From: a virus
Taxonomy: Duplodnaviria > Caudoviricetes
Strand: one strand, 5' to 3'
DNA length: 64,000 nt
IMG/VR virus record: IMGVR_UViG_3300005686_000008
Part shown: in pieces, positions 6,895 through 26,901 of the stretch
Numbering within the stretch: the stretch's first letter is position 1
Layout of the letters: every line of letters begins with the position of its first letter
The notes under the pieces: generated by a model
Told to the model about the DNA's origin: nothing
What the model saw: the letters and a program-made list of their open reading frames with translations, nothing else
Databases searched by the model: none
Position numbers and translations under genes: made by a program

Positions 6895-7566
6895 ATGGCA
6901 AAAAGTCGTCAACTGTACCTTGATGTTGCTTCGCATGCGGAGATTCCTCTAGCAAACAGAAAAGAGGTTGTTTCAGGAAGGGGCGGGGAGCTTAGGGTTC
7001 CTCGCCGTTATCATTTGAAGGCGGACAAGCTTATTGCTTTGCGCAATCAGATGAAGGAATCTGGTCATTTCATATCTCCTTACGGGGCGAATCGTCTCTA
7101 CACATTTATCATTGAGGCCTTATCCGAGTTAGGGACGAACAAGCCTCACGCATGCAATGTGGTATGGGAGAAGTTCAAGGAGGTAGCATCTCGTCCTGGG
7201 ACGACGAAGGCAGGGAAGACGGCGTGGGAGCGTTTTTCTGAGCGTCCCAGTCGCAGCGCGACGACCGGGCTTGACGATTTTTCTCGGTTTCTTCAGAACC
7301 TTGAGGTACTTCAGAGGCTTGGGGGAGATCATCCTTACGGGTTCAAGCTATCGCAGGTGGGCGCTTGTATTGACATCTTGATGGACATTGAGACGGGGAT
7401 GAAGGTACAGCTTCGGACTGGGATTACTGATGGCGAGCCTGTGAAGCCTGTTAACATGAGTCGTAAGAGGGTATATAAGAAGACGGTTGATTTCATTCCT
7501 GCTGGAACGTTGATTGATGCGGTCTTTTCTGATGACGAGGGGGCTTCAGAGGAGTCCGAGGACTAA
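6895..7566 (+). CDS. hypothetical protein
   Basis: long ORF, GGAG upstream; its TAA stop is part of a GACTAAACTT motif. Confidence 0.7.
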   Translation: MAKSRQLYLDVASHAEIPLANRKEVVSGRGGELRVPRRYHLKADKLIALRNQMKESGHFISPYGANRLYTFIIEALSELGTNKPHACNVVWEKFKEVASRPGTTKAGKTAWERFSERPSRSATTGLDDFSRFLQNLEVLQRLGGDHPYGFKLSQVGACIDILMDIETGMKVQLRTGITDGEPVKPVNMSRKRVYKKTVDFIPAGTLIDAVFSDDEGASEESED

Positions 7567-12193: not shown

Positions 12194-12649
12194 ATGAAAG
12201 TAGCCATGCCCAACGAAACGGAAAGTCAAAGTGTTCTTTGTTACCTGACTGATTGGCAGGAAAGGCCTTCAGAGGGGCCGAAGAGCAAGACGGACACCTT
12301 ACGTTTCAGGTTTGGGATTTCTGTATCTCCGAACCAGTGGATGCTGACGGAGTTTAGGGATGCTCTTGCGTTGCATCGAACCTATGCTTCGAACTTTTCG
12401 GACCTGACGCCGACTTTCAAGACGATTGCTGGGATTAGGGCTTTTGATGGTATCAAGAAGGTTCAAGAGGCATTGGAGGCGGTAGCAAAAATCAATCCAA
12501 ACTTGAAGCCTTTGCCAACAAAAGACGATATTGAGTTGGCATTGGATTTCGCCAACCAAGTAGATTCTTTCTATCAAACGGATTTTGCAATCCATGATAA
12601 TGTACGAGAGAGGTACTTTGGGGCTGGCGGGGAAGAAGACGACGAATGA
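12194..12649 (+). CDS. hypothetical protein
   Basis: ATG exactly 30 nt after motif at 12164. Confidence 0.7.
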   Translation: MKVAMPNETESQSVLCYLTDWQERPSEGPKSKTDTLRFRFGISVSPNQWMLTEFRDALALHRTYASNFSDLTPTFKTIAGIRAFDGIKKVQEALEAVAKINPNLKPLPTKDDIELALDFANQVDSFYQTDFAIHDNVRERYFGAGGEEDDE

Positions 12650-13098
12650 AGACTGCAAAGCTTGTCAAGACAATTGAGATTAATCATCCCGAATATCCTG
12701 GGACGGTTATTAGTTTGAATATTTACGAGGTTGAAGGCGGCTATGTAGGCGTAGACTCTTCTTTTACGGATGAGGTTGCGAACTACATTGCGAATCCTTA
12801 CGCCGAGTGTCAGTTGGTTAAGCTTCCTGATCCGATTGGGAATGATGAAGAGATTGACCCTCCTCTGGAGGAGGATGAACTCGTTGGGTTCTTGCGCATT
12901 TTGACTGCATTTGACTCAACGATTCAACTTTTGCCAGTTGAGCAGCAAGAGATCATTATGAACGGTTTGGCGAAGAGGTCTGGTTTGGCTCGCGACCGTT
13001 TGAGCGTGTTGCTCGGGTTGGCTCGTCAGGAAGTTGATTCTGCTGCTTTGTTCCAGTTTGTACAGGCCTTGAAGCCCGAAAGCGAAAATGGGGATTGA
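12646..13098 (+). CDS. hypothetical protein
   Basis: ATGA-coupled ORF. Confidence 0.7.
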   Translation: MKTAKLVKTIEINHPEYPGTVISLNIYEVEGGYVGVDSSFTDEVANYIANPYAECQLVKLPDPIGNDEEIDPPLEEDELVGFLRILTAFDSTIQLLPVEQQEIIMNGLAKRSGLARDRLSVLLGLARQEVDSAALFQFVQALKPESENGD

Positions 13099-13744
13099 TA
13101 ATCTCATAATCATTGGCGACATTCATGGGAAATGGCCCATGCTGAAGAATGTCTGCGACAAGTACAAGGACAAGACTGTTCTTGGGCTTGGAGATGTCGG
13201 TCTGGGCTTTTTTGGGAGCAGAGAGCCGAAGCTTCCTGAGAACTTTCGTTTTTTCCGCGGAAATCATGATAACCCCGCCGTCTGCAAGGCTCACCCTCAG
13301 TACACCGTTGATTACGGAATGTGGGAGGGCGTCTACATTCTCGCCGGCGCTGACTCCATTGACAAGAAATGGAGAACTGAAGGTAGGGATTGGTGGCCTG
13401 ATGAGCAGTTGAGCCGTGAGAACATGGAGTTAGCTTTGGAGGACTATGCCAAGGCAAAGCCCGACATTTTGATTTGCCATGAGGCTCCCTTCAGGATTCA
13501 CGAGATTGCTCGGGCGGCTTCAGTTACGCATGACCGCAACAACGAGGGCTGGGGCGGCGCAAAGGGCAACTCCACCGCCTTTTTGTTGGATTCGATGATT
13601 CAGGCTCATATGCCGAAGATGTTGGTACATGGGCATTGGCATAACCCGTTGATTTACAAGCATTGGGGCTGTGTTTTCATCTCTTTGGCGGAACTTGAGG
13701 CGTTGGATTTGGCTGAGGCTGCAAAATTCTTTCGTGTTTTTTGA
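13088..13744 (+). CDS. calcineurin-like metallophosphoesterase
   Basis: GDIHG, GDVG, GNHD, HEAP, GHWH motifs. Confidence 0.9.
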   Translation: MGIDNLIIIGDIHGKWPMLKNVCDKYKDKTVLGLGDVGLGFFGSREPKLPENFRFFRGNHDNPAVCKAHPQYTVDYGMWEGVYILAGADSIDKKWRTEGRDWWPDEQLSRENMELALEDYAKAKPDILICHEAPFRIHEIARAASVTHDRNNEGWGGAKGNSTAFLLDSMIQAHMPKMLVHGHWHNPLIYKHWGCVFISLAELEALDLAEAAKFFRVF

Positions 13745-13752
13745 AGGAGTTC

Positions 13753-13781
13753 TTGACATCTAGCCGAAAGAGGTATAGAGT
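13753..13781 (+). promoter_or_regulatory. sigma70-type promoter for the Leu leader/tRNA-Leu array
   Basis: TTGACA-17 nt-TAGAGT, 7 nt before the leader ATG. Confidence 0.7.
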
Positions 13782-13788
13782 GACCATT

Positions 13789-13836
13789 ATGAAGAATGCA
13801 TCCTTGTTATCCTTGAGCCTACTACTCCTCAGTTGA
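13789..13836 (+). CDS. Leu-rich attenuator leader peptide MKNASLLSLSLLLLS
   Basis: 7 of 15 codons are Leu (TTG,TTA,TTG,CTA,CTA,CTC,CTC); overlaps alternative hairpins. Confidence 0.8.
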   Translation: MKNASLLSLSLLLLS

Positions 13837-13910
13837 GGGGCAGAAGTCTCATTGCTTGCAAGGCAAGTTGTGACCCTGCTCCTCCCCAAAGAGAAGTAGG
13901 GTTTTTTGTT
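13822..13910 (+). promoter_or_regulatory. transcription attenuator (1:2 pause, 2:3 antiterminator, 3:4 terminator)
   Basis: seg1 CTACTCCTC 13822-30, seg2 GAGGGGCAG 13835-43, seg3 CTGCTCCTC 13876-84, seg4 GAGAAGTAGGGT 13891-902 plus poly-T. Confidence 0.8.
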
Positions 13911-13927
13911 TTGGCAAGTAAATATTC

Positions 13928-14001
13928 GCTCGTGTATCCCAACTGGCAGAGGAGCAATCCTGAGAAGGTTGTTGTTGGTGGTTCGAATCCACTCATGAGC
14001 A
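13928..14001 (+). tRNA. tRNA-Leu(GAG), short variable loop
   Basis: GCTCGTG/CATGAGC acceptor, CAATC-CTGAGAA-GGTTG, TTCGAAT loop. Confidence 0.85.
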
Positions 14002-14007
14002 TTTGTA

Positions 14008-14091
14008 GCGGCTATGGCGGAACTGGCAGACGCAACAGCTTGAGGTGCTGTCTCTCGAAAGGGAATGGAGGTTCAAATCCTCTTAGCCGCA
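14008..14091 (+). tRNA. tRNA-Leu(GAG)
   Basis: GCGGCTA/TAGCCGC, ACAGC-TTGAGGT-GCTGT, long V arm. Confidence 0.9.
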
Positions 14092-14102
14092 TTTGACAAT
14101 TA

Positions 14103-14183
14103 GGCCCTGTGGCGTAACGGCAGCCGCGCCAGACTTAGGATCTGGTCCCGTAAGGGGTGGAGGTTCAAATCCTCTCAGGGTCA
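14103..14183 (+). tRNA. tRNA-Leu(TAG)
   Basis: CCAGA-CTTAGGA-TCTGG, long V arm. Confidence 0.9.
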
Positions 14184-14197
14184 TTTGGAAAAAGCAG

Positions 14198-14280
14198 GCC
14201 CCTGTGGCGAAACGGCAGACGCGGCAGATTCAAAATCTGCTTCCCGCAAGGGAGTGGAGGTTCAAGTCCTCTCAGGGGCA
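14198..14280 (+). tRNA. tRNA-Leu(CAA)
   Basis: GCAGA-TTCAAAA-TCTGC, long V arm. Confidence 0.9.
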
Positions 14281-14286
14281 TTTAGA

Positions 14287-14360
14287 GAGCATGTGGCGAA
14301 ACGGCAAACGCGCCAAGCTCAGAACTTGGTTCTCTGGAGGTTCGAATCCTCTCATGCTCA
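14287..14360 (+). tRNA. tRNA-Leu(CAG), short variable loop
   Basis: GAGCATG/CATGCTC, CCAAG-CTCAGAA-CTTGG. Confidence 0.85.
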
Positions 14361-14378
14361 TTCCGCAGGCTAAACTTT

Positions 14379-14452
14379 GGCCCCGTAGCACAATTGGCAG
14401 ATGCACTCGATTTAAGGTCGAAGGGTTGAGAGTTCGAATCTCTCTGGGGCTA
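14379..14452 (+). tRNA. tRNA-Leu(TAA), short variable loop
   Basis: GGCCCCG/TGGGGCT, CTCGA-TTTAAGG-TCGAA. Confidence 0.8.
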
Positions 14453-14457
14453 TTCTG

Positions 14458-14820
14458 ATGGCATTAGTTGTTTGTTCAAATCCTCTTGGTCGGGCGCTCA
14501 AGTCTTCTCTTGTAGAGAAAGCAACAGAGCTGGCACGAAAGGATATTGCTCACGCAATAGTTTGCGATTGGATTAGCATTTACAGAGCATGCTTTGACAT
14601 GAATGAGCCAGACATTGACTGGGATATGTGGACAAAGTATGTGAATGAGTTGGAATCTTCTTTATTAACTTTCATTGACAGAGGAGAGATTGCCAAACGA
14701 AGAATTTTGTTTTCTTCGATTATTAGACCCCGTGGCGGAACCGGCAGACGCAACGGACTTAAAATCCGTAGACCTTCAAAAGTCATGGGGGTTCAAGTCC
14801 CCCCGGGGCCATTAGACTAA
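14458..14820 (+). CDS. hypothetical protein whose 3' end overlaps a tRNA-Leu
   Basis: ORF fills the gap between tRNAs; last ~30 codons run through the tRNA. Confidence 0.45.
   Translation: MALVVCSNPLGRALKSSLVEKATELARKDIAHAIVCDWISIYRACFDMNEPDIDWDMWTKYVNELESSLLTFIDRGEIAKRRILFSSIIRPRGGTGRRNGLKIRRPSKVMGVQVPPGPLD
14726..14811 (+). tRNA. tRNA-Leu(TAA)
   Basis: ACGGA-CTTAAAA-TCCGT, long V arm. Confidence 0.9.
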
Positions 14821-14881
14821 ACTTTTTGCCAAGTAGTGATACGCTGTAGGGACAGCCTTTTTCTAGTCGATGTAACACTGC

Positions 14882-14982
14882 GCGGCAGATAAAAAGCTCA
14901 CTACTCGTTTGGTAGGCGAATATCATCAGTTGACTTGATGGTTGAAAAGGAGAGCTAGCGGGTCAAAAACCCGCCTGCCGCT
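14882..14982 (+). ncRNA. tRNA-like structured RNA (acceptor stem plus T-like arm, atypical core)
   Basis: GCGGCAG/CTGCCGC 7 bp stacked on GCGGG-TCAAAAA-CCCGC; internal AGCTC/GAGCT helix with two hairpins. Confidence 0.55.
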
Positions 14983-14987
14983 TTAGA

Positions 14988-15242
14988 ATGAAGCTTTATC
15001 CTCGTCACAGGAAGGTTCTTTCCGCCGTCAACGGGTATAGCGATCTCAATTATGTCTGTCAAAGAACAGGCGTTCAATCCGTAATTCAGGTTGCAAAAGA
15101 GTTAGAAAAGGCCGGTCTTATTCGTGTCAGGAAAAGAGGCTATATGAAACGGCGCTCTTATTCCTATTCACTCGTTAAGACCAAAGGGGCCTACGAAAGA
15201 ACCGCTGCTGGTCATAAGATTGTGGGGAAACATGCTTGGTAA
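14988..15242 (+). CDS. putative winged-helix DNA-binding protein
   Basis: basic; ...VAKELEKAGLIRVR...YSL wHTH-like pattern. Confidence 0.55.
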   Translation: MKLYPRHRKVLSAVNGYSDLNYVCQRTGVQSVIQVAKELEKAGLIRVRKRGYMKRRSYSYSLVKTKGAYERTAAGHKIVGKHAW

Positions 15243-15471
15243 CACTACGCCGGATTTGGACTCTCAGGGTCGTGACCGGAACGACTATGCTCGCTGCAAG
15301 ATGTGTAACGCTTCTGCGCTGGACAAGGAAGTTCATCTTGAGCCGAGCAGGTCTGCTCTTATCTTTGGTCCGTTCCCTGGGATGAGGGTTCCGATGGAAC
15401 ATCGCTGCACTGATTGCGAGCAAAAGGTCTGCGACGGTATTAACAAAACATTGGAAGCGATGAAAAGATGA
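15232..15471 (+). CDS. small zinc-finger protein
   Basis: CKMC...CTDC. Confidence 0.6.
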   Translation: MLGNTTPDLDSQGRDRNDYARCKMCNASALDKEVHLEPSRSALIFGPFPGMRVPMEHRCTDCEQKVCDGINKTLEAMKR

Positions 15472-15893
15472 GAATCATGTTCTTAGATGACATGAAGAGC
15501 AGGCGAGACGCTTTCAAGCAAAATGCTATTGGTCACATTGTTGACTTTGCCTCCACTGCGCAGGAGGCGATTGCTTTTTTGCGCGCAAATAAATACGACG
15601 CCATCTACCTCGACCATGACCTAGAGGCTGAGCATTATCAAACCAACGAGGAGTACCACGAAGACGGTAGTTTCGTTGCTCGCAATTTGGTTGATATGAA
15701 TCAGCATCATGGAGTCATTGTCGTTGTTCATAGTCTCAACCCGAGCGGAAGATTGAATATTAGAAGCATTCTTAAGGAAAGCTTTGATGTTTGGCTTCCA
15801 GAGAACTTCAGGGGCATTAGCGAGCTTTGGAAGATTGAAGTGAATGTTATTATTGGAGCAATCAAGAAATATAACAAACAGTCAAAGGACTAA
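15468..15893 (+). CDS. cyclic-phosphate-processing receiver-like domain protein
   Basis: IMFLDD...IYLDHDL...VVHSLNP signature. Confidence 0.8.
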   Translation: MRIMFLDDMKSRRDAFKQNAIGHIVDFASTAQEAIAFLRANKYDAIYLDHDLEAEHYQTNEEYHEDGSFVARNLVDMNQHHGVIVVVHSLNPSGRLNIRSILKESFDVWLPENFRGISELWKIEVNVIIGAIKKYNKQSKD

Positions 15894-15958
15894 ACTTTTT
15901 TCTCCTTGAAATAGGTACTTGTCGATATACTGGTCGATAATGCCTAAAGGAGGGCGTC

Positions 15959-16255
15959 ATGACTGTTAATGAATTTCTTGACATTGTGCAGGTCGGATAT
16001 GTCGTTCAAATAGTCTGGAACGGGCCTTTGTTTGACCCTGATTTGATTGTCAAACCTGGTGAAAAAACAGTCGGCCTTAGTAAGGTGTATACTTGCGGAT
16101 TTGTTGCATACACTGAACCGGGCGGATCTTTCATTTCTATTGGAATAGATGCAATGTATGAAGCTGAAGGAACTTCTCCTAGCTTTAGAAGTATTGTAAC
16201 TATTCCTGTTTCTTCTATTGAGAGCGCAGAGATTTATGGCGCAATTGTGAAATAA
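15959..16255 (+). CDS. hypothetical protein
   Basis: SD AAGGAGG. Confidence 0.65.
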   Translation: MTVNEFLDIVQVGYVVQIVWNGPLFDPDLIVKPGEKTVGLSKVYTCGFVAYTEPGGSFISIGIDAMYEAEGTSPSFRSIVTIPVSSIESAEIYGAIVK

Positions 16256-16323
16256 AAGAAGGAATTCAGGAAGCGTAATCGGTATGAGTGTAAAATCGGT
16301 TCACAATTCTGTGAGATTCATTC

Positions 16324-16352
16324 TTGACTTTTGCGGAAATAGCCGATAGAGT
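16324..16352 (+). promoter_or_regulatory. sigma70-type promoter for the Trp leader/tRNA-Trp pair
   Basis: TTGACT-17 nt-TAGAGT; same -10 as the Leu promoter. Confidence 0.65.
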
Positions 16353-16371
16353 ATGGCGGAGTAGTACAGAA

Positions 16372-16437
16372 ATGAACAACAAGATAGTACATCAGGTGAT
16401 TTGGCATGTCATTACCTTCAGGGGTAAGGGCTGTTGA
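16372..16437 (+). CDS. Trp-containing leader peptide MNNKIVHQVIWHVITFRGKGC
   Basis: GGAG SD, single TGG at 16402, overlaps antiterminator segment. Confidence 0.65.
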   Translation: MNNKIVHQVIWHVITFRGKGC

Positions 16438-16500
16438 CTACTTGATGTATGTTGACGGATTCTCGAACCCCTGAGCAAAAGTGCTTAGGGGTTTTTTGTT
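16388..16500 (+). promoter_or_regulatory. transcription attenuator upstream of tRNA-Trp genes
   Basis: terminator AACCCCTGAGCA/TGCTTAGGGGTT plus T-run; antiterminator TTCAGGGGT (16417-25) pairs ACCCCTGAG; competing helix 16388-97/16440-49. Confidence 0.7.
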
Positions 16501-16532
16501 TGGTTCTTTGACAAGTGAATAGTTAGCATTTT

Positions 16533-16603
16533 ACGCCGTTGGTCTAGTGGCTGGGCCTTGGATTCCAAATCCAACGACGCGGGTTCGATTCCCCCACGGC
16601 GTG
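16533..16603 (+). tRNA. tRNA-Trp(CCA)
   Basis: ACGCCGT/ACGGCGT, TTGGA-TTCCAAA-TCCAA. Confidence 0.88.
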
Positions 16604-16608
16604 TTCAT

Positions 16609-16681
16609 CCGCCGTTAGCTCAACTGGTAGAGTTCTGGATTCCAAATCCAGCGGTTGCGGGTTCGATTCCCCCACGGCGGG
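16609..16681 (+). tRNA. tRNA-Trp(CCA)
   Basis: CCGCCGT/ACGGCGG, CTGGA-TTCCAAA-TCCAG. Confidence 0.9.
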
Positions 16682-16778
16682 CTTGCTGGCTAAACTTTTC
16701 TTGTGATTTCACAAAATAATGAGAAAGGTCTAGTCGATAAGACCTATAGTTTCTTTCCTTTCTTTTTGGAGATTTTCA

Positions 16779-17117
16779 ATGTCTGATACCAAGTCTTCTC
16801 GTCCTCGTCGTCCTCTTCAGAAGCCTGTTTTCATTATTCAGGATTTCGATCCTTCGAATCCCGAACACATGAAGGGCAATGTTCCGATTATCCTGAACAA
16901 GGCTTTGGCCTTGGAACTCGTCAAGTTCATCAGGGAAAGCGAACTTGGACCGAACGAAGGACATATTTACGCCATGCAGGGACGCTTGGGGCGTTGGTAC
17001 AAGAACCGTATCGAACATATCAGGAAGTTGAAGGCTGAAGAGGCCAAAACTGCGCTTCCTGAAGAAGTTCATGATGAGATTCATGAAGAGTCTCATGAGA
17101 ACCCGGTTCAAGGCTGA
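16779..17117 (+). CDS. hypothetical protein
   Basis: GGAG SD, coding-like composition. Confidence 0.7.
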   Translation: MSDTKSSRPRRPLQKPVFIIQDFDPSNPEHMKGNVPIILNKALALELVKFIRESELGPNEGHIYAMQGRLGRWYKNRIEHIRKLKAEEAKTALPEEVHDEIHEESHENPVQG

Positions 17118-17127
17118 GCAGTTATTT

Positions 17128-17200
17128 GGGCGCATACGTCAGCGGCTAGACGGCTTCCTTTACACGGAAGAGGGCGGGGGTTCAAATCCCTCTGCGCTCA
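17128..17200 (+). tRNA. tRNA-Val(TAC)
   Basis: CTTCC-TTTACAC-GGAAG. Confidence 0.9.
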
Positions 17201-17221
17201 TTTCCCTATGTGGGATTTGAT

Positions 17222-17294
17222 GGTGGCTATAGTTCAAAGGCTAGAATACCTGGTTGTGAGCCAGGGGGTACGGTTTCGAGATCCGTTAGCCACC
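17222..17294 (+). tRNA. tRNA-His(GTG)
   Basis: G-1, GTGGCTA/TAGCCAC, CCTGG-TTGTGAG-CCAGG. Confidence 0.85.
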
Positions 17295-17307
17295 CTTTGA
17301 TTTGTTT

Positions 17308-17379
17308 AGGACTGTAGCTCAGAGGCAGAGCATTCCCTTGATAAGGGAGGGGTCGGGATTTCAATATTCCCCAGTCCTA
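17308..17379 (+). tRNA. tRNA-Ile(GAT)
   Basis: AGGACTG/CAGTCCT, TTCCC-TTGATAA-GGGAG. Confidence 0.85.
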
Positions 17380-17386
17380 TTTTCCC

Positions 17387-17476
17387 CGGATAGTGTCCTG
17401 AGTTGGCTAAGGGGCCGCCTGATAAGCGGTGCATACTCCACAAGAGTATATGTAGGTTCGAGTCCTATCTATCCGA
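17387..17476 (+). tRNA. tRNA with GAT (Ile) anticodon and long variable arm
   Basis: CGGATAG/CTATCCG, GCCGC-CTGATAA-GCGGT, V arm ATACTC-CACAA-GAGTAT. Confidence 0.75.
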
Positions 17477-17488
17477 TTATAATCTTAT

Positions 17489-17562
17489 GGGCGTCTGGCG
17501 CAATTGGCTAGCGCGCTTCTTTGACGTAGAAGAGGTTCCGGGTTCGAGTCCCGGGATGCCCA
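17489..17562 (+). tRNA. tRNA-Val(GAC)
   Basis: CTTCT-TTGACGT-AGAAG. Confidence 0.9.
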
Positions 17563-17597
17563 CTTCAGACTAAACTTTTTGGGGAGAATATTAAGAC

Positions 17598-18477
17598 ATG
17601 CGTAAGGACATGAAAAAGGTCGTTACTGAGAAGGGCGCTGTCGGAGGCGTCGGCAATTTCATGATCCGCCGCAATCGTCGTCAGGTTAAGAAGGCCTGCT
17701 TGGACGGTAACGAAGACGTTGATTCTCTCAACTTCCACGGAATCAGGAAGGTTCACACCTCCAGCCCCTGTTCTTGGGATAACCTCAAGTCATCGGGGTG
17801 CAACTCGAATGTCATCCGTCGTTACCTCAAGTCCCGTGTTGGCCAGGTGTGGAACGATGTCTACAGCGACATGAGCAAAAACCTGGACCGTAAGGCTCTC
17901 GATAATGTCAACTGGATGGTCGAAACCAAGACTTTCTTTGAGAATGGCAAGATTTGGGTCGCCGGCATCCCTCCCACTGTCCTTGGTTTGTCGTACCATC
18001 GCGATGAGTTCTATGTTGACCCGAGGGACGGGACACTGCGCTGCATGCCGCAGGCCGCAGGCTCCTGGCGGTAAGCATTACGCCGCTCGTCGCATGGAGA
18101 TGATGGACAGGTTCCGCTACATTGATTCAAAGAAACCTCTCGTTCAGTACCACTGCATCAATGGTATTTGGTACGAGATCAAGCTCCGCGAGGCTTCTGC
18201 TTCCGAGAAGAAGGAGAAGTCCTTCGGCGAGTACCGTCGCAACTACAATCGTGCGACTTTCATGCTTGAGACGGAGTGGTGCAGGATTTACAACAACGCC
18301 ATTGTTGACCAGCTTGTTGAAAACCACAGGGAAGCTCTCGTTTTCGAACGTGATAATGTTTGGGAGCTTTGCGTTTCACTGTTTCGCGGTCATTACTTAC
18401 CCATCTCGAAGAGGCAGATTTCCTCGAAGGAGATTCGTCTCGTTAAGGAGTTGATGGAAGAGAGAGACAAGGAGTGA
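17598..18477 (+). CDS. conserved hypothetical protein split by a +1 frameshift near 18065-18074
   Basis: 17598..18074 stops at TGG CGG TAA; coding continues in +1 frame (KHYAARR...) to 18477. Confidence 0.55.
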
Positions 18478-18518
18478 AGTCTGTAGGACTAAACTTCTGT
18501 AAGTCGAAAAATGTTTGA

Positions 18519-18594
18519 GGGATGCGTGTTGCCGAACGGTTTAGGCTCTCGACTCATAATCGAGGCAATGTGGGTTCAAGTCCCACCCATCCCA
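18519..18594 (+). tRNA. tRNA-Met/Ile2(CAT)
   Basis: CTCGA-CTCATAA-TCGAG, GTGGG-TTCAAGT-CCCAC. Confidence 0.8.
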
Positions 18595-18600
18595 TTTGTT

Positions 18601-18672
18601 AGGCTCTTAGCTCAGCGGTAGAGCAGGAAACTCATAATTTCTTGGTCGCCGGTTCGAATCCGGCAGAGCCTA
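18601..18672 (+). tRNA. tRNA-Ile2/Met(CAT)
   Basis: AGGCTCT/AGAGCCT, GGAAA-CTCATAA-TTTCT. Confidence 0.88.
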
Positions 18673-18676
18673 TTTT

Positions 18677-18877
18677 ATGCCGAAAGCAAAAATCAGAGAC
18701 CCCTGGAATGTTGTTGAAGAAACAATAACCAGAGCTGTTCGAAGAGCCTGGGAACGACGCTTGTACAAGCATGTCGAATGTCCCATCAAAGATGATGCTG
18801 AAGTTCAACGTATTATCGACACTGTTTCTGATGAAGTTCTAGTTCAGATCATGGAAACCATCAGCTTTGAGGATTAA
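18677..18877 (+). CDS. hypothetical protein
   Basis: packed ORF. Confidence 0.6.
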   Translation: MPKAKIRDPWNVVEETITRAVRRAWERRLYKHVECPIKDDAEVQRIIDTVSDEVLVQIMETISFED

Positions 18878-18879
18878 TA

Positions 18880-19095
18880 ATGAAGCTTACGCAAATTGAA
18901 CAAGGTCAAACGGTAAAATACAAAGGCTCCAACTACGTTGTTATGTTGACCTGGGGAAATCGCGCCATTCTTTCTCCTATTGTAGGAGATCAGCGTATCG
19001 AGGTTGATGTAGGAGAGATTTCTGGACTTGTTCGGGTTTCTCCTGCTCAGCAGTTTGTTTTGGATTCGCAGGCTAAACTTCCGCAGCAGTCCTAG
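18880..19095 (+). CDS. hypothetical protein
   Basis: packed ORF. Confidence 0.6.
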   Translation: MKLTQIEQGQTVKYKGSNYVVMLTWGNRAILSPIVGDQRIEVDVGEISGLVRVSPAQQFVLDSQAKLPQQS

Positions 19096-19100
19096 GGGAT

Positions 19101-19490
19101 ATGGCACAACTCTCCCCCAATCCCCATCAGCCCACTGAACCGAATGTCAGCTTTGAGGATTTTTCCCTAGAGGGGATGCGTCGGGCTGACAAGTACGTTC
19201 AAGATTTGATTGACAAGATGCAGCAGAAGGATCCGGACGATCCGAACTGCGACATTCGGGGAGTGATTCTTTCATTCCCTCGGGGCGATGGTGCTGCTTA
19301 CTACATTGTCAGCAAAGTCCGCCCACTGACTGTCGAGCATATTCCTGTCTGCGATGCATGGCGGGCCTATCCGGAAGATCTTGTTTTGAGGGGCATCAAC
19401 AAGGCCTACATCATGGACATCCTCCGCATGGAGAAGAGGATGCGGGGAGCGTTAGGCGTCCGTCAGCGCGGCTGGGCACCCGGCAACTAA
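19101..19490 (+). CDS. hypothetical protein
   Basis: ATG 30 nt after motif; stop inside next motif. Confidence 0.75.
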   Translation: MAQLSPNPHQPTEPNVSFEDFSLEGMRRADKYVQDLIDKMQQKDPDDPNCDIRGVILSFPRGDGAAYYIVSKVRPLTVEHIPVCDAWRAYPEDLVLRGINKAYIMDILRMEKRMRGALGVRQRGWAPGN

Positions 19491-19514
19491 ACTTTCTGCG
19501 CGCAAAAAAGAGGC

Positions 19515-19748
19515 ATGGCAAAGACCAAGAAAACCTCGAAGCGCTTCTATTTGATGTATGTTTGCGGAGGGACTGATCCGATGGTACTCGGTCGCTCTCA
19601 CAAGGACTATGATGGCGTTTTGAGGGCGGCTCGAAAGTTTGTCAGGGGAGATGATTACAAAGAGGGCGAGGACGGTGTTTTTTACCTCGTTACTACCAGC
19701 AGAACCGTGAGAGCTGGTTCATTCGACAGTTCAGAACTTGAGGATTAA
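19515..19748 (+). CDS. hypothetical protein
   Basis: ATG 30 nt after motif. Confidence 0.7.
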   Translation: MAKTKKTSKRFYLMYVCGGTDPMVLGRSHKDYDGVLRAARKFVRGDDYKEGEDGVFYLVTTSRTVRAGSFDSSELED

Positions 19749-19751
19749 GTC

Positions 19752-19946
19752 ATGGGTATGGTAAGCAAAGAACTGATGGAAGGCATGGAAGTCAACGTTT
19801 CCGCTCCCGAAGAGGGCGATTCTCATCCCGGTCCTTTTGTGGGACTGGTTGCTGGTATTCAGGAAGATACCATTCTGGTCAAGGATCAGGATGGAAACGT
19901 GTTTGAAATGGGCAAGGCGAGGGTCAAGCCGATTTCTGAGGACTAA
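19752..19946 (+). CDS. hypothetical protein (SH3-like?)
   Basis: packed ORF, stop inside motif. Confidence 0.65.
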   Translation: MGMVSKELMEGMEVNVSAPEEGDSHPGPFVGLVAGIQEDTILVKDQDGNVFEMGKARVKPISED

Positions 19947-19990
19947 ACTTTCCGCGCAAAAACGGAAGGTATCTCAAAGGGAACAAAGAA

Positions 19991-20167
19991 GTGAAGGATA
20001 ACAGCTTTTGGATTGTGGTTGAAGAGGGGAAGTCACTAGCGAGCGGAATTCGTTGTGACGGCGGAAAGTCGGAAGCCAAGAACCTCCGAAAAGAGATGGA
20101 ACAGCAGGGCGGCAAATGGAAGGCCCTGAAGACGACGAAGAAAGAGATTGTTTCCTCGAACGCTTGA
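19991..20167 (+). CDS. small hypothetical protein (58 aa, GTG start)
   Basis: read manually: VKDNSFWIVVEEGK...; AAAGGG SD. Confidence 0.5.
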   Translation: MKDNSFWIVVEEGKSLASGIRCDGGKSEAKNLRKEMEQQGGKWKALKTTKKEIVSSNA

Positions 20168-20294
20168 GCTTGAAAAGGTGAAACGAACGAGGATACAATG
20201 AAGAGCATGTTCCTTGGGCCTTTCGATGGCAGCCTGCAAGGGACAACCCACTGCGACGGAAACGACGTAATGGGTGTTTGACGGTTTCTTTGAT

Positions 20295-20621
20295 AAGTGA
20301 ATATGGTAAGCGGTGGCTGAAAACCTAATGTCTATCTCCAGACATAAGGCACTGAGTTTATGGTGACTCAGGTACGAGTAAGCCATTTTGGTGTAGTGCA
20401 GAAGGAAAACGGGTATCCGGCAAAGGCCATAGGAAAACCGTTGGGGCGCTAAAATCTCGACTGGCCATACTAACAATGACCAGGGGAGCGGGATTGCAGG
20501 TAACCATTCCTGCCTCGGAGAGACCTGATTCGAAGCGGGTTTCATTGATGAGTCGCATAATAACATCAGGATGGACGAAAATTCAGAGGCTAGTAACCTC
20601 TGCCGCTTACCATGTTCACTT
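20295..20621 (+). ncRNA. large structured ncRNA of unknown class
   Basis: 22-bp terminal helix with G-U pairs enclosing at least 6 hairpins; no + strand ORF. Confidence 0.7.
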
Positions 20622-20636
20622 TTCAATGGAGGTTTT

Positions 20637-20753
20637 ATGTGGTACAAAGTAGAACACAATCCACCGGATGATGACAACAGCGGTAGCGATTCGAATTGCC
20701 CTTGCGGTGATTCTGATTGCGACGGCGGCGGTAGCGATGGCGATTACGATTGA
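20637..20753 (+). CDS. 38-aa acidic Cys-containing peptide
   Basis: GGAGG SD; MWYKVEHNPPDDD...CPCGDSDC. Confidence 0.5.
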   Translation: MWYKVEHNPPDDDNSGSDSNCPCGDSDCDGGGSDGDYD

Positions 20754-20934
20754 ACCAATAGGGTCGTGTCGAACTTCTCCGTAGTAAGTTGACATGCTCC
20801 TAGCCGATGCAAGCGGCGAAGATTATGACGGAGCGTTGGGCTACGACTGAGCGGTAGCAGCGAATCCACTGTGCGGTGCAAGCCGAAGTTCAGCGGCAAT
20901 CAACTCCTGCAAGAGTTGGATTGCATTTACAGAT

Positions 20935-21010
20935 TGCGGAGTAGAGGAGTCTGGCCGTCCTCGTCTGGCTCATAACCAGGAAATCGCAGGTTCAAATCCT
21001 GCCTCCGCTA
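20935..21010 (+). tRNA. tRNA-fMet-like (CAT)
   Basis: unpaired 1:72, GCGGAG/CTCCGC, TCTGG-CTCATAA-CCAGG. Confidence 0.85.
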
Positions 21011-21083
21011 TTCAAGGATTGGTCGCCTTGTAAATCAACAGACCTATTCTGTGTACTTAGGGTCGCTCCCTCGGGAAAGAATA

Positions 21084-21158
21084 ACGCCCAAAGCCTAAAT
21101 GGTGAGGCACTCGGCTTTCATCCGAGGTATCTAAGGTTCGAATCCTTAGTGGGATGTT
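21084..21158 (+). tRNA. tRNA-Glu(TTC), irregular acceptor stem
   Basis: CTCGG-CTTTCAT-CCGAG, CTAAGG-TTCGAAT-CCTTAG. Confidence 0.7.
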
Positions 21159-21679
21159 CCGTTCGAGTAGGTAGAACTTCTTAGAGATGGAGTAGGTCTA
21201 GTAAAACCTGAAAAGGTCGAAAAACCGTAGATAACTTTTCTGAGAAAGCCCTCACTGAGGGAAAATCCTATCTAGAGCGCCATCTAGATCGGTGTCAAGA
21301 ACCACCGAGAGGCGCAGTTGAGATGTTGGGTGAAACTCCCTTCATTCTCGCTTTCAGTAGACCCACGTTGGTATGAGGCTCGCCTCGGCAAGACCTGCAC
21401 CCAACCTCTGGGAGAGCAAGAACTGAACCGTATACTCGATGCATGCCCGGGGTTTAAAACGGTTCTCTACTGGATTTCGCCGTCAGAGCTACCGCAAGGA
21501 AAACTCTGGCGGCGTTTTCTTTTGTAGGCAGGCTAAACTTTTAGCCGATATGAGGGGGACTTATCCAGACCTTTTCCCTGTCTGGCTAAACTTTCGTACC
21601 AAAAAGGGATACTGTCTTACCCAAATCCTCTACCTTGTCGGAACGAGTAGGTTTGGGTACTTTAGTAGGAGTCCTCAAC

Positions 21680-22597
21680 ATGAAGTTCTTTGCATCTCTT
21701 CTTGCGTTAGTCTGTGCTGTGGTAGCGTTTGCCCAGCCCATTCCACCGAAGGCTACGGCTGGTCCTGCGGTGGCTTCTCTCGATGATGTCGTCATTGACG
21801 AAGGCCCTCTGGTTTATTACCCGGCTCGCGACCCCCTCGCCTATATGGGGCAGGCGTGCTACGACCAGATGGAGCTGACCTGTTTCGGCGTTCAGACCAA
21901 TCAGACCGTTTGGAACCTCGACCTCAGTTCTCCGCCCACTGGCAACTACGCAAGCGGGCTGACTCGCAGCAACCTTCCGTTCAATGTGCAGTTCTCCGTC
22001 TTCATCGTTCGTGATGTGGATGACCCTTCTTTGGACCGTATGGGTACTTGGTATGGCGTCATCAGCGGCGATAACGGGAGTTTTCACTGCGGAGGTTACT
22101 ACTTCGAGCTTGGAGGCTTTGCGTCTATTGTCCCTCTTTATGCTCGCAGCGAGCAGGCGGAGATGTTCTCGATTCACGAGAATCTTTTGAGCTTGAGCGA
22201 CGGCGGCGGCTACGATGGTCGCCAATGGAACTGCGCTCTTGACGAAACTGCATTGTTCCAGGCGCAGCAGAACTACATCAACGCCACCGCATGTGCGGAT
22301 GCCCATTTCAATCGCTACATGGGCATCGCCCTCTCTTGTACGGCGATTGGAGTCGGCTCTTGCTGGATTTCGTTCGGAGCCGGCTGTATCGGCGCGCTCA
22401 TCTGCGATGGAGTCATTCTCATCAAGGATATCTTCTGGCAGCGCGAGTTCATGGGCGAGCAGAACCGCGCTCGGTCATGCCTCTGCCTTGAGTCCAACTG
22501 GCGCACGGCTCACCCCGGACAGCCGATTCCGAACTCGTCTTGCGGCGATTTCCATTGTCCTGACTCTCCCGGAGTTGATATCCCCAAGCTCGACTAA
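21680..22597 (+). CDS. secreted Cys-rich protein with hydrophobic Gly/Cys hairpin
   Basis: signal peptide MKFFASLLALVCAVVAFA, AGGAG SD. Confidence 0.75.
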   Translation: MKFFASLLALVCAVVAFAQPIPPKATAGPAVASLDDVVIDEGPLVYYPARDPLAYMGQACYDQMELTCFGVQTNQTVWNLDLSSPPTGNYASGLTRSNLPFNVQFSVFIVRDVDDPSLDRMGTWYGVISGDNGSFHCGGYYFELGGFASIVPLYARSEQAEMFSIHENLLSLSDGGGYDGRQWNCALDETALFQAQQNYINATACADAHFNRYMGIALSCTAIGVGSCWISFGAGCIGALICDGVILIKDIFWQREFMGEQNRARSCLCLESNWRTAHPGQPIPNSSCGDFHCPDSPGVDIPKLD

Positions 22598-22635
22598 ACT
22601 TTCTTTGGAAGTTTATTTTCTCAAAGGAAGAATCA

Positions 22636-22806
22636 ATGACAACGCTTCAAATTTCCATCTCCCTCATGCTCTTGCTCCTTGTCTCGCTCTTTATTCGGGC
22701 GAAGCGTAAGGGCATGAAAATGGACGGTCGGACGGTTGGACTTGGAATCCTCTTGGGTATTGGGTTGGCTTTCGGCCTTCCGCTCTTGTTCAACCTGCTT
22801 TCGTAA
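22636..22806 (+). CDS. 56-aa two-TM membrane protein
   Basis: read manually: MTTLQISISLMLLLLVSLF...GLGILLGIGLAFG; AAAGGA SD; terminator follows. Confidence 0.6.
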   Translation: MTTLQISISLMLLLLVSLFIRAKRKGMKMDGRTVGLGILLGIGLAFGLPLLFNLLS

Positions 22807-22957
22807 TCCATCCTGTCCATCTTAGACTCCCCATCCCTACTCGCTGTACGGGGTGGGGAGTTTTTCTTTTTGCAGGCTAAACTTTGCTGGGCGAAATGCA
22901 AAGAGTCAGAAGCAGAGGAGTATCTGCCTGACAAGGTTCATAAGATGGAGAAAGCAA

Positions 22958-23515
22958 ATGTCTGACACCGCGACGAAGAAGGAGAAGAAGGCCAAGGCGA
23001 AGAAGCCCGTTGAGGCAACTCCGACTGCGGCTCCCGTTGAGGCTCCGCAGGACACTGCGCCGGTTCTGGAGGCGAAGGTTGATGCGGTCCCCGAGGCGAA
23101 GCCCGAGGACGCGAAGACCGATTCGGCGAAGCGCAAGAAGAAGAACACGACCGTTGCGGTCATCGACCCCTCGAACCCCGAGAGCGTGACACAGTTCCTC
23201 AGCGAGTTCCTCGCTCAGTCGGCTGCTCAGCCTCCGACGAAGGGCTACGACCAGCACGTGAACCGCGAGGGCTTCGTCCATGCGGGGACGGCTCAGCGGC
23301 TCAGCAACGGCGGCATCTCGAACATGCTGGCGGTTCAGTTCGACATCCTGGCTCGTCGTTCGCTCGATGGCGACAAGGCTGCTGGCGAGTTCTATGACGC
23401 CATGCTGAACTTCGCCACGAGCCGGCGCGACCAGCTCAAGGCCGAGCGCAAGGCGAAGATTCTCGCCGAGGCGGAGGCCATTCGCGCTGAGGAGGCTGCG
23501 AAGGCGAACGCCTAA
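22958..23515 (+). CDS. hypothetical protein, paralog of 23759..24166
   Basis: GGAG SD, strong codon bias, C-terminus ILAEAEAIRAEEAAKANA, own terminator. Confidence 0.8.
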   Translation: MSDTATKKEKKAKAKKPVEATPTAAPVEAPQDTAPVLEAKVDAVPEAKPEDAKTDSAKRKKKNTTVAVIDPSNPESVTQFLSEFLAQSAAQPPTKGYDQHVNREGFVHAGTAQRLSNGGISNMLAVQFDILARRSLDGDKAAGEFYDAMLNFATSRRDQLKAERKAKILAEAEAIRAEEAAKANA

Positions 23516-23758
23516 CGAACTCTCTCTCCTCCATGACCCCCTGGCGCAAAAGCGTAGGGGGTCTTTCTTTTGCTGGCTAAACTTTTTGCGCAAGGGGAAA
23601 GAGAAGAACGGCCAACAACCCAACAGACAGAAGGGAAGTTGGATTGCAAGACTAAACTTTCTTGCAAAAAACGGTTAGTATCAGATGAGAGCCGAAACAG
23701 AAGTAGGCTTTCCAAACAAGGCCCAAATAAAGGGCAGTTCAAGAAAGAGGAATGAATC

Positions 23759-24166
23759 ATGAGCGAAGCAACCAAGAAGACCCGCGCCTCCCGCAACAAC
23801 CACATCGCGACGAAGGACAACGCCATCACCGATGCGAAGTCGGCGCAGTTGTTCGTTGAGTCCGCTCGTCACGCCACGGCTGGCGACAAGCCCTCCACGA
23901 TGTTCAACGGTTCGGGTTTCGTCACCCCCTCCGCCCTCGATGGCCAGGACGCCGAGAACCTCGTTCGGATGGGCGCGACCATCAACGACGCTCTGGCTCG
24001 CATGGTTTCGCAGAACGCCGAGCAACGCGATATCGCCGAGCTCGGCCTCCGCATCCTCGCTCAGCACGCTGCCGACGCCAGCGAGATTCAGCGGCAGGCT
24101 CGTCGCGCCGCCGTCCTCGCCGAAGCCGAGCGCATCCGCGCCGAAGACGCAACGGCGAACGCCTAA
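23759..24166 (+). CDS. hypothetical protein, paralog of 22958..23515
   Basis: C-terminus VLAEAERIRAEDATANA, terminator 24183-24207. Confidence 0.8.
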   Translation: MSEATKKTRASRNNHIATKDNAITDAKSAQLFVESARHATAGDKPSTMFNGSGFVTPSALDGQDAENLVRMGATINDALARMVSQNAEQRDIAELGLRILAQHAADASEIQRQARRAAVLAEAERIRAEDATANA

Positions 24167-24245
24167 TCAGCCAATCCAAGAGAGCCGTCCGAAAGGGCGG
24201 CTTTTTTATTTGACAGGCTAAACTTATTTGGGAGCAATGGAATCT

Positions 24246-24551
24246 ATGACAACGCCCAAAGAACAATGCTCTGACCCCTTTTGTCGTTGCCATGATAAGT
24301 TTACTGGTCCGGGCTGCTGCGGAGACTGCAAAATGCTCCCCATCGTTCAAGTAACTCTTGGGCTTGCTCTCGCCGACCATACTTGGATTGAGCGGGTTGT
24401 CGAGTTCGAGTGCGACCCTGAGTTTGACGATGACGATTCGTTTGACTTGCAGGAAACTGCTGCTAATCATTTGATGTCCAAGAATCAGGAAGAAATGGAC
24501 AAGTTGGCTCCATCTGGCTGGTTCTTAATCGCCTGGCAATGGAAGGAATAA
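24246..24551 (+). CDS. hypothetical Cys-rich protein
   Basis: ATG 30 nt after motif at 24216. Confidence 0.65.
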   Translation: MTTPKEQCSDPFCRCHDKFTGPGCCGDCKMLPIVQVTLGLALADHTWIERVVEFECDPEFDDDDSFDLQETAANHLMSKNQEEMDKLAPSGWFLIAWQWKE

Positions 24552-24552
24552 C

Positions 24553-24927
24553 ATGCCTACTCCGATTACCGTCCCTGTTCTCGATGACGCCGAGAAGTGG
24601 TTGCGCGAGAATTTCCATGATCTGATGACCGACACGGTTTGTACGGTTCTCCCGGACCACAAGGTAGACCTTGATGGGAAGACTCGTTGGACTGATTCTG
24701 AGGATGGCTCAGAGAAAATCCTTGAAATGAAGGATTATGTCAACGGAATGTCTCTTCTCTTCAACCAAATCGGTCGCAAGTGGGTTGATGAGAATGGGAA
24801 TCAGCGCGGGTTGTTTGTCGGCTGCATTACGAACCCTGCTGACTTGATTGACCCCGGCAATTGGGACGCAGAGGTTGTTGATGCCTTTTTCCAACTCTGC
24901 TATTATGGAGAGGTTATCTACGGATGA
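24553..24927 (+). CDS. conserved phage hypothetical protein
   Basis: C-terminal DAEVVDAFFQLCYYGEVIYG pattern. Confidence 0.75.
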   Translation: MPTPITVPVLDDAEKWLRENFHDLMTDTVCTVLPDHKVDLDGKTRWTDSEDGSEKILEMKDYVNGMSLLFNQIGRKWVDENGNQRGLFVGCITNPADLIDPGNWDAEVVDAFFQLCYYGEVIYG

Positions 24928-25051
24928 TTAATCCGTTCAAGTTCCTCTGTTGTTGGTTCCGAGGTAAACATTCCTTCCGCTTTACATGCCGTCATCGTTG
25001 CGCATATTGCGGTAGGGATTTTGGTCAATGGGCAAGCAAATAGGGTGCTAT

Positions 25052-25522
25052 ATGCTTTCCAGATATGAAAAAGCGCAAATGGAAGAAGAATTGGCGGAAT
25101 TGACCCGAGAGTTGAACTCTTTAAGTTCTCCATCGGGTAGGATTGAAAACCGCTGTAATAAATGCAGAGCAACCCTCACATATGACAATCAAGGAGAACT
25201 ATGTGATGGACTCTGCAAAAGCTGCGAGAGTTCTTATAACATTGAGCGGATTGTAGAAGCGGGAAGAGAGGCGGGAGTTTACCCCTCTGACATTCGTAAA
25301 GACATTAATGAGAAGTATCCTCCCATCGTTTTGCTTCTTTGTCCTTATTGCGACAACGCTTGTTATCCAGAAGAATATGAACAAGGAGGGCATAGCGGAT
25401 GTATTCGCGATAACGAAGGAACCAAAGAAAGAATACAGAGAAGAATTGATAGGATCAATCATCTTCTAAACGAAGACCGCGAAGAAGCTTTGAAAAACTA
25501 TCGTGAGGAATTAAACTCATGA
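25052..25522 (+). CDS. zinc-finger protein
   Basis: multiple CxxC. Confidence 0.6.
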   Translation: MLSRYEKAQMEEELAELTRELNSLSSPSGRIENRCNKCRATLTYDNQGELCDGLCKSCESSYNIERIVEAGREAGVYPSDIRKDINEKYPPIVLLLCPYCDNACYPEEYEQGGHSGCIRDNEGTKERIQRRIDRINHLLNEDREEALKNYREELNS

Positions 25523-25713
25523 ATATGACATGGCGGCAACTCTTAGAGATTTTGTCCCAAATGCCTAACGAGCGTTTGGATGACAACGTAACCGTCTTCG
25601 TTTGCGGCGAGTTTTTCCCAGTGCTGAGCATAGGTAAGGTTGAGAACGACCAAGACGAAGAGGGCGGCGGAGTCTTGGACGACGGCCATTCCTATCTCAT
25701 CGTTAACGACTAA
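25519..25713 (+). CDS. hypothetical protein
   Basis: GAGG SD, stop in motif. Confidence 0.7.
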   Translation: MNMTWRQLLEILSQMPNERLDDNVTVFVCGEFFPVLSIGKVENDQDEEGGGVLDDGHSYLIVND

Positions 25714-25737
25714 ACTTTCTGCGCGGATAAAAGAAGT

Positions 25738-26268
25738 ATGAACAGCAACCTTGCCCAAGAGATTCTCCAAGACGCAGCTCGTCGCCTCGATGACAAGGGA
25801 GAAGGAGATGACTTTTCTCTTGAACAATGCGATGCGATTGCGAACGCTGTCAGTAAGGTTATGGAGGGCAAGGTCGTTGCTCGTTCTGCTGACCTTGACG
25901 GCATCTATAATGCGCTTGAGTACGCTTGCTCCTTCATCAAGGCTGGTCGTAAGGAGATGGACTCGACGGCTCGGGACCAGCTTTTGGTTGCGATGGAGCA
26001 AATCCGTCGCTATTCGAGGGGCGAACCCGAAGAGGGCGGCGAGGTTGTCCAAGACTCTTCGATCACATTCAAAGTTGATGATGTGCCGATTCGGGTTGGT
26101 AACGACATGAGGGTGGAGGCTTCTCTCCCTGACGGCGCAATGCTCGTTGTTGTTCTGACGCACGAAGGCATCATCATGGACTTTTGGCCCGAGGACGCAG
26201 ACGAGCCTGCGGCTACTTCTTCGATGATGTACGATGAGCAGGCTGTGGAGATGACAGAAGGACTATAA
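25738..26268 (+). CDS. hypothetical protein
   Basis: ATG 30 nt after motif. Confidence 0.75.
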   Translation: MNSNLAQEILQDAARRLDDKGEGDDFSLEQCDAIANAVSKVMEGKVVARSADLDGIYNALEYACSFIKAGRKEMDSTARDQLLVAMEQIRRYSRGEPEEGGEVVQDSSITFKVDDVPIRVGNDMRVEASLPDGAMLVVVLTHEGIIMDFWPEDADEPAATSSMMYDEQAVEMTEGL

Positions 26269-26269
26269 A

Positions 26270-26485: not shown

Positions 26486-26522
26486 GACAGACTAAACTTT
26501 TTGAGCAGCATTGGACAAAGCA

Positions 26523-26735: not shown

Positions 26736-26776
26736 ACTTTTAGACTTGGTAGCTCAGTTGGTAGAGCAGCGGCCTT

Positions 26777-26848: not shown

Positions 26849-26901
26849 TTAAAAAGAAGGATTCTTATATAGACCGACAGAATACATTTCTGGAGGTGTA
26901 T

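Follow-up and report, generated by a model that had tools for sequence, protein, structure and literature searches.

A probable leucine-responsive ribosomal attenuator before a phage tRNA-Leu array, and a second cassette whose leader matches its own tRNA genes

Why should a leucine-rich open reading frame (ORF) of 15 codons, followed by an intrinsic terminator, stand directly in front of seven tRNA-Leu genes in a phage genome? The locus lies in a 64,000-nucleotide (nt) stretch, hereafter the window, of the Caudoviricetes record IMGVR_UViG_3300005686_000008. This single viral record, recovered from a bioreactor sludge metagenome, has 370,652 bp and 40% G+C and is about 73% complete according to CheckV. 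ARAGORN found 25 tRNA genes genome-wide, sorted in groups by amino acid. Phage tRNA genes are usually viewed as constitutively expressed patches for codon usage or as substitutes for tRNAs that host defences cleave, and we know little of how their expression is controlled. An earlier note on the sequence had proposed that the tRNA-Leu array is preceded by an attenuator sensing Leu codons. The proposal gained support from eight homologous loci and from an independent second cassette that matches its own tRNAs. We consider it probable that the element attenuates transcription by the classical, ribosome-mediated route of the trp and leu operons, and that it gates the tRNA genes it senses. Since it would supply the very molecule to whose scarcity it responds, it would act as a negative-feedback homeostat of the supply for Leu decoding.

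Computation showed the anatomy of the cassette, its competing helices, how these are conserved and covary, and the agreement of leaders with tRNAs. The promoter-like site TTGACA-17-TAGAGT and, 7 nt later, the 15-codon ORF with seven Leu codons were found where the earlier note had placed them (Table 1). The Leu codons read, in order, TTG TTA TTG CTA CTA CTC CTC. This richness (7/15) was attained by 11 of the 2,895 short ATG ORFs of the 370-kb genome, in whose long ORFs Leu accounts for 8.0% of the codons. RNAduplex and folding calculations bore out the mutually exclusive pairings 1:2, 2:3 and 3:4 as well as the terminator with its T-run. The competing duplexes had energies of -11.7 (1:2), -17.2 (2:3) and -14.9 kcal/mol (3:4). 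For the 2:3 duplex, the shuffle mean was -9.7 kcal/mol, and its energy was matched by 0.4-1.8% of the shuffles (p = 0.004-0.018). The leader RNA as a whole folded with z = -3.7 against shuffled controls. A chance origin of this pattern is unlikely.

The tRNA-Leu genes begin 17 nt after the terminator tail, and all seven scored 48-59 bits against the Rfam tRNA model, well over threshold. The earlier claim that only tRNA-Leu genes lie downstream held in part. The seven genes and their anticodon set are as described; inside the array or at its end there are also a small ORF (from 14458) and two copies (14370, 14817) of a phage-specific motif.

A second cassette of the same design precedes a mixed group of tRNA genes. 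The ten residues IVHQVIWHVI of its leader contain nine that are Ile, Val, His or Trp, and no other such ten-residue window occurs among the 2,895 short ORFs. The same four amino acids are those of the downstream tRNAs. A long 1:2 hairpin precedes segment 2 in this leader, the 2:3 duplex has an energy of -15.6 kcal/mol (p = 0.012 against shuffles), and the terminator is a helix of 13 bp. From 16500 to 17563, terminator prediction gave no strong site. Rfam also picked up two tRNA-like genes that ARAGORN missed, at 18520-18595 and 21087-21154 (36.6 and 38.9 bits). The former has a CAU anticodon and adjoins a tRNA-Met gene; it could be a lysidine-type tRNA-Ile reading the ATA codon of the second leader.

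Table 1. Coordinates of the two cassettes and of the tRNA genes that follow them in the window
Feature	Position	Strand	Basis and remarks
Predicted sigma70-type promoter TTGACA-17-TAGAGT	13753-13781	+	Consensus scan; -35 box 13753-13758, -10 box 13776-13781; kept in 8 related loci
Leader ORF MKNASLLSLSLLLLS (15 codons, 7 Leu, then stop)	13789-13836	+	ATG 7 nt past the -10 box; TGA at 13834-13836
Segment 1 ACUACUCCUCAG	13821-13832	+	Within the last Leu codons; 1:2 = -11.7 kcal/mol (RNAduplex); helix also in the minimum-free-energy fold
Segment 2 UGAGGGGCAGA	13834-13844	+	Begins on the TGA stop; alternative partners segment 1 or segment 3
Segment 3 CCUGCUCCUCC	13875-13885	+	Antiterminator partner of segment 2; also the 5' arm of the terminator
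Intrinsic terminator	13873-13912	+	Hairpin 13873-13902, then U6-G-U4; -14.9 to -16.7 kcal/mol; kept in relatives with compensatory changes
Seven tRNA-Leu genes	13928-14811	+	ARAGORN; anticodons GAG, GAG, TAG, CAA, CAG, TAA, TAA; one small ORF embedded
Predicted second promoter TTGACT-17-TAGAGT	16324-16352	+	Consensus scan; kept in 5 relatives
Second leader ORF MNNKIVHQVIWHVITFRGKGC (21 codons, then stop)	16372-16437	+	GGAG 9-11 nt 5' of the ATG
Second switch	16416-16500	+	Segment 2 CUUCAGGGGUA 16416-16426; segment 3 ACCCCUGAGC 16467-16476; terminator 16465-16494 and U-run
tRNA genes Trp, Trp, ORF (16779-17117), Val(TAC), His, Ile, Ile, Val(GAC)	16532-17563	+	ARAGORN

Relatives of the locus were sought in IMG/VR, JGI metagenomes and Logan assemblies, with the metallophosphoesterase gene directly upstream of the Leu cassette (13088-13744) as anchor. 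The comparison set for the Leu cassette comprised nine loci, the window included, with at least six different sequences and an anchor-protein identity of 67-85%. GenBank phages contained no relatives of the region, distant blastn searches giving just isolated tRNA matches, and scans of IMG/VR with exact and degenerate leader patterns returned nothing beyond two relatives already known. The leaders of the relatives are MNMSSLLSLSLLLLI, MNAKSLLSLGLLLLT, MFRIHSSLLLGLSLLI, MNTNFNSLLCGLLLLE (two loci), MNINFNSLLCGLLLLT and MPKDFSYNLLSGLLLLE. The copy at locus L066 is degraded: its ATG frame is cut short, and a GTG start with a Shine-Dalgarno sequence gives VKTVDCNLLLG. Across the nine loci there are 6-7 Leu codons per locus, and three in L066. 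The N-terminal leader residues are almost wholly different among the loci, and the Leu positions are retained. Synonymous Leu codons were swapped across the TTR and CTN boxes, so that one aligned position is TTG, CTG or CTA. The Leu codons 5' of segment 1 are also retained as Leu; base-pairing constraint alone therefore cannot account for the Leu frame.

This pattern of conservation also bears on the idea that the short ORFs encode functional hydrophobic micro-peptides, membrane-active or toxin-like, whose proximity to tRNA genes is incidental. Both peptides are indeed hydrophobic, but rather short, at 15-21 residues, to span a membrane as a helix. Their conservation is limited to the cognate residues, and the rest varies freely. 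The enrichment in His and Trp, with four His in a distant relative, fits the tRNA-His and tRNA-Trp genes and not hydrophobicity. We regard a peptide function as very improbable.

The pairings are conserved along with the codons. Relative to the first base of the stop codon, segment 2 starts at -1 to +2 nt in 9/9 loci, and in all nine the 2:3 duplex reaches -13.9 to -17.5 kcal/mol (p <= 0.018 against shuffles). MAFFT alignments were inconsistent with the structure in segments 3 and 4, and we therefore tabulated the pairings sequence by sequence with RNAduplex. The 2:3 partners are GAGGGGCAG/CUGCUCCUC in the window, GAGGAGCAG/CUGC-AA-UCCUC in L058, GAGGAGCGG/CCGC-A-UCCUC in L065 and GAGGAGCGG/CCGCUCUUC in L060. 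Three segments changed together: CAG to CGG in segment 2, CUG to CCG in segment 3 and UAG to GCGG in segment 4. In a second subfamily, with the 2:3 partners AGGGAUGG/CCAUCCCU, the whole set is swapped to AUGG/CCAU/GAUGG (segments 2/3/4). Every change in segment 3 is thus mirrored in segment 4 (UAG, GCGG, GAUGG). Covariation of one base with two alternative partners is what one would expect of a switch. The RNAalifold consensus recovered the 1:2 helix and the terminator, both with changes on both sides; for 1:2, these concern one pair in three sequences. The earlier note had named loss of the Leu codons or of the 2:3 pairing in homologous loci as an observation that would speak against it; both proved to be conserved in eight loci, with compensatory changes.

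The second cassette is kept in six relatives, five close and one distant. The five close relatives carry a leader of the form ...IV(V)HQVIWHVIT..., with Gln replaced by His in one. A one-base insertion in segment 2 (CAGGGG versus CAAGGGG) is matched in segment 3 (CCCCUG versus CCCCUUG) and in segment 4. In the distant relative (51% anchor identity), the cassette is relocated directly before the Val, His and Ile tRNAs. Its leader MTQIHAHHIVVITHWTAGGA (beginning MTQIHAHHIVVITHW) is another peptide of the same composition, with 2:3 and 3:4 pairings of its own.

Transcription signals at the Leu locus were compared in the same way. The eight relatives all keep the -35 and -10 boxes as well as the spacer motif TCTAGCCGAAA. 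Matches to the sigma70 consensus occur genome-wide at chance level (50 on one strand, 48 on the other); the promoter is called for its conservation in relatives and not for the match. Most phage genes are preceded by a different, strand-specific motif, G-R-CTAAACTT-(T/C), with 91 copies on the gene strand against 2-3 on the opposite one. As a rule, it stands 20-30 nt 5' of a start codon; it also stands directly after tRNA blocks, and is probably a phage-specific promoter or processing signal. Its sites include 14370, 14817, 15890, 16690, 17570, 18489, 26492 and 26732 in the window, with about 80 more genome-wide. The site at 14370 lies inside the Leu array, directly before a tRNA, and another lies upstream of the cassette at 12166. 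As this motif precedes most genes, the sigma70-type cassettes may be read by the host RNA polymerase. Intrinsic terminators are obeyed by that enzyme.

These signals also admit a more ordinary layout. The hairpin would end the upstream operon (genes to 13744) or a short non-coding RNA, the tRNAs would be expressed constitutively through read-through or phage promoters, and the Leu frame would be a by-product of a C/U-rich arm pairing with GAGGGG. The phage motif at 12166, 14370 and 14817, the chance frequency of sigma70-like matches and the double use of the last four Leu codons as segment 1 all agree with it. Yet the Leu codons outside segment 1 (TTG TTA ... TTG) are still kept as Leu, and a promoter about 120 nt before a terminator would be futile unless the terminator were conditional. 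The coincidence would also have to arise twice in this one window, with different amino-acid sets that match their own tRNAs, and to persist across relatives. We judge this layout quite improbable.

Translation of the Leu leader has its own peculiarity. The ATG stands 5-7 nt past the -10 box, with no Shine-Dalgarno sequence, in 7/9 loci. Because of this short distance and the lack of a ribosome-binding motif, the mRNA is probably leaderless, with its start at or just 5' of the AUG. Contigs about 90% identical to the region that cover both leaders came from two runs of wastewater metatranscriptomes and two of freshwater DNA, and one RNA-library contig ends about 9 nt beyond 13913. We rejected these contigs as proof of transcription or of a 3' end; all derive from one study, and their starts lie upstream of the promoter.

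To describe how a ribosome would set the switch, we masked the stretch it would occupy, from -15 to +12 relative to the A site, on a transcript cut before segment 4. In the Leu leader, the in silico probability that segment 3 is paired with segment 2 was 0.91 with the A site on codons 1-12 and 0.18 with the A site on the stop codon. Under the same mask, it fell from 0.71 to 0.22 in the relative L001, and the second leader showed the same trend through codon 12. The stalled-ribosome folding suggested in the earlier note thus came out as proposed for the nascent Leu transcript: the position of the ribosome shifts the 2:3 pairing.

We infer the transcription start, the translation of the leader, a kinetic choice of helix and a physiological trigger, which together would work as follows. 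The host RNA polymerase would begin at or just before the AUG, and a ribosome would translate the Leu-rich leader. With ample charged tRNA-Leu, it would reach the UGA and cover segment 2; the 3:4 helix would form, and transcription would stop near 13908-13912. When Leu decoding is slow, the ribosome would stall on codons 6-12, covering segment 1 and leaving segment 2 free. The latter would pair with segment 3, no terminator would form, and the polymerase would enter the seven tRNA-Leu genes. The second cassette would apply the same logic to Trp, Val, His and Ile tRNAs.

Several observations weigh against ribosome-mediated attenuation. Equilibrium folding of the full transcript kept the second terminator for every ribosome position (P = 0.96) and showed merely a patchy effect of the ribosome in the Leu cassette. 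Since equilibrium favours the second terminator throughout, the choice would have to be kinetic. In the E. coli trp leader, 3:4 is likewise the most stable helix, and the decision there is kinetic as well. The nascent Leu transcript already prefers 2:3 in the absence of a ribosome (P = 0.90). Basal read-through could therefore be high, and termination may need active translation through to the stop codon. If the stall fell on one of the two final Leu codons, the ribosome would hide part of segment 2. Translation of the Leu leader, with no Shine-Dalgarno sequence, hinges on the assumed leaderless start, and the sigma70 matches, as said, are at chance level. The phage motif in and after the array may allow some tRNAs to be transcribed independently of the attenuator. 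As for conservation, the ATG ORF of L066 is broken, and the more distant L061, L062 and L063 have no cassette. The latter three belong to eight distant relatives, together with L025, L026, L041, L047 and L055, for which no clear cassette was seen at this locus.

A terminator/antiterminator switch could also be real and be set by something other than a ribosome, namely a tRNA (T-box-like), an RNA-binding antiterminator protein of phage or host, or polymerase pausing. The 2:3 versus 3:4 geometry alone suits any antitermination mechanism, and a Leu leader lacking a Shine-Dalgarno sequence agrees with such a switch. No T-box or other Rfam cis-regulatory family matched at E <= 1 over 12500-28000, however. 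Such a switch also leaves unexplained the cognate-rich ATG-to-stop frame in 8/9 loci, the synonymous changes of Leu codons, the stop codon that always abuts segment 2, and the Ile/Val/His/Trp make-up of the second leader. We hold it to be unlikely, and retain the ribosome as the probable sensor.

The cassettes resemble known attenuators in build and differ from them in target. In leu-type leaders, exclusive 1:2, 2:3 and 3:4 hairpins likewise end in a terminator before the regulated genes, and a stalled ribosome favours read-through. Here, phage tRNA-Leu genes would be regulated instead of leucine biosynthesis, the start is probably leaderless, and the signal would be relieved by the product tRNA and not by amino-acid synthesis. 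The second cassette is comparable to the multivalent ilvGMEDA and ilvBN leaders (Ile, Val and Leu mixed), where codons for several amino acids serve one transcription unit; its Ile/Val/His/Trp mix, in contrast, mirrors the downstream tRNA genes and not a shared biosynthetic pathway. The pheM-pheST attenuator controls aminoacyl-tRNA synthetase genes. Like it, and like T-boxes, the present cassettes would regulate the translation apparatus by the charging state of tRNA, although tRNA genes take the place of the synthetase of pheM. T-box riboswitches bind uncharged tRNA directly through a specifier loop and a T-box motif, neither of which was found here. The Rfam families of enterobacterial Leu, Trp, His and Thr leaders gave no match at E <= 1 over 12500-28000. 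The short leader with a run of four Leu (GLLLL in several relatives) resembles leuL of the E. coli/Salmonella leu operon and the S. aureus ilv-leu attenuator peptide (PMC5794164). In mycobacteria, leaderless short poly-Cys ORFs are reported to be Cys-responsive attenuators of cysteine-metabolism operons (bioRxiv 10.1101/834739). With the Leu cassette, whose mRNA is probably leaderless too, they would have in common that the message begins directly with a brief reading frame enriched in a single amino acid, whose translation controls the genes behind it; they differ from it in that a canonical intrinsic terminator and tRNA genes are found here.

Attenuators usually act on genes for biosynthesis, transport or synthetases; downstream of the Leu leader there are tRNA genes and a small ORF. 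This target is the point of novelty and not a mechanistic requirement. Full-text literature searches found no account of attenuators before tRNA genes or phage tRNA arrays, in line with the earlier impression that such control is undescribed. If the reading is correct, it would be the first known case, among the literature searched, of ribosome-mediated attenuation regulating tRNA synthesis itself, and the speed of decoding would feed back directly on the supply of tRNA. A further unusual feature would be the probable leaderless start of the Leu cassette, which keeps its distance of 5-7 nt to the -10 box. As each leader spells the tRNAs that it would control, such cassettes could report tRNA depletion in infection, help to annotate the tRNA operons of phages and lend themselves to synthetic circuits that respond to tRNA.

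What would trigger the switch in infection? A response to starvation or to a tRNA-cleaving host defence is plausible, with RNA-repair-type genes as context. A protein with a cREC (cyclic-phosphate RNA-repair receiver) domain is encoded at 15468-15893, the anchor gene encodes a calcineurin-like metallophosphoesterase, and a full-length RtcB ligase lies about 15 kb upstream (G000:C1:300593-301720). No class-I synthetase of the LeuRS type was found in the 73% complete record. Tentatively, the cassettes might be decoding sensors, one per amino acid, that make tRNA supply inducible. They would be off in a well-matched, undamaged host and on within seconds when a tRNA pool fails through an anticodon nuclease, phage-induced tRNA loss or codon mismatch. 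Working with the cREC protein, the metallophosphoesterase and RtcB, they could form a self-tuning device for counter-defence and host range; we regard this wider role as possible and rather doubtful.

Other tRNA genes were inspected for similar control. A cassette was looked for at the Met and Lys tRNAs in the window, and none was found. A genome-wide scan for biased short ORFs before terminators gave a single further candidate, a Ser-rich short ORF, which was rejected because it overlaps the 3' end of a long gene out of frame. The Glu/Arg tRNA block, some 57.5 kb ahead of the window (reverse-complement coordinate 26499-26670), is preceded by a promoter of the same type (TTGACA-17-TAGACT) and a 17-codon ORF, MNSSFKFLEQRNFQERR; it was rejected as an attenuator for want of a U-tailed terminator, and may be a degenerate or different control unit. 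Upstream of tRNA-Met in L025 (about 14590-14800, minus strand) and L026 (about 14693-14900, minus strand), a TTGACA-17-TATAAT promoter is followed immediately by a Met-rich mini-ORF, MSMKMVRG, with no clear terminator. This ORF is perhaps a further sensor with a leaderless start. Outside the window, at reverse-complement coordinate 7392-7465, lies a tRNA with the amber-suppressor anticodon CUA. It raised the question of TAG recoding, which we rejected, as ORF lengths show no sign of genome-wide reassignment.

The tRNA-Leu genes themselves are of two sizes. Those at 13928-14001, 14287-14360 and 14378-14453 have only 74-76 nt and are devoid of the long variable arm typical of bacterial tRNA-Leu. 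They adjoin 81-86-nt versions of the same anticodons, and the short forms are kept in relatives (L001, L065). In several relatives, inserts of about 0.6-1 kb split the tRNA genes of these arrays or lie between them (L001 6893-7900, L012 (G001) about 740-1400, L066 2575-3130, L002 11700-12050). Such inserts bear endonuclease-like ORFs, and one sits in the anticodon loop of tRNA-Leu(GAG), which suggests introns or homing elements that target tRNA arrays.

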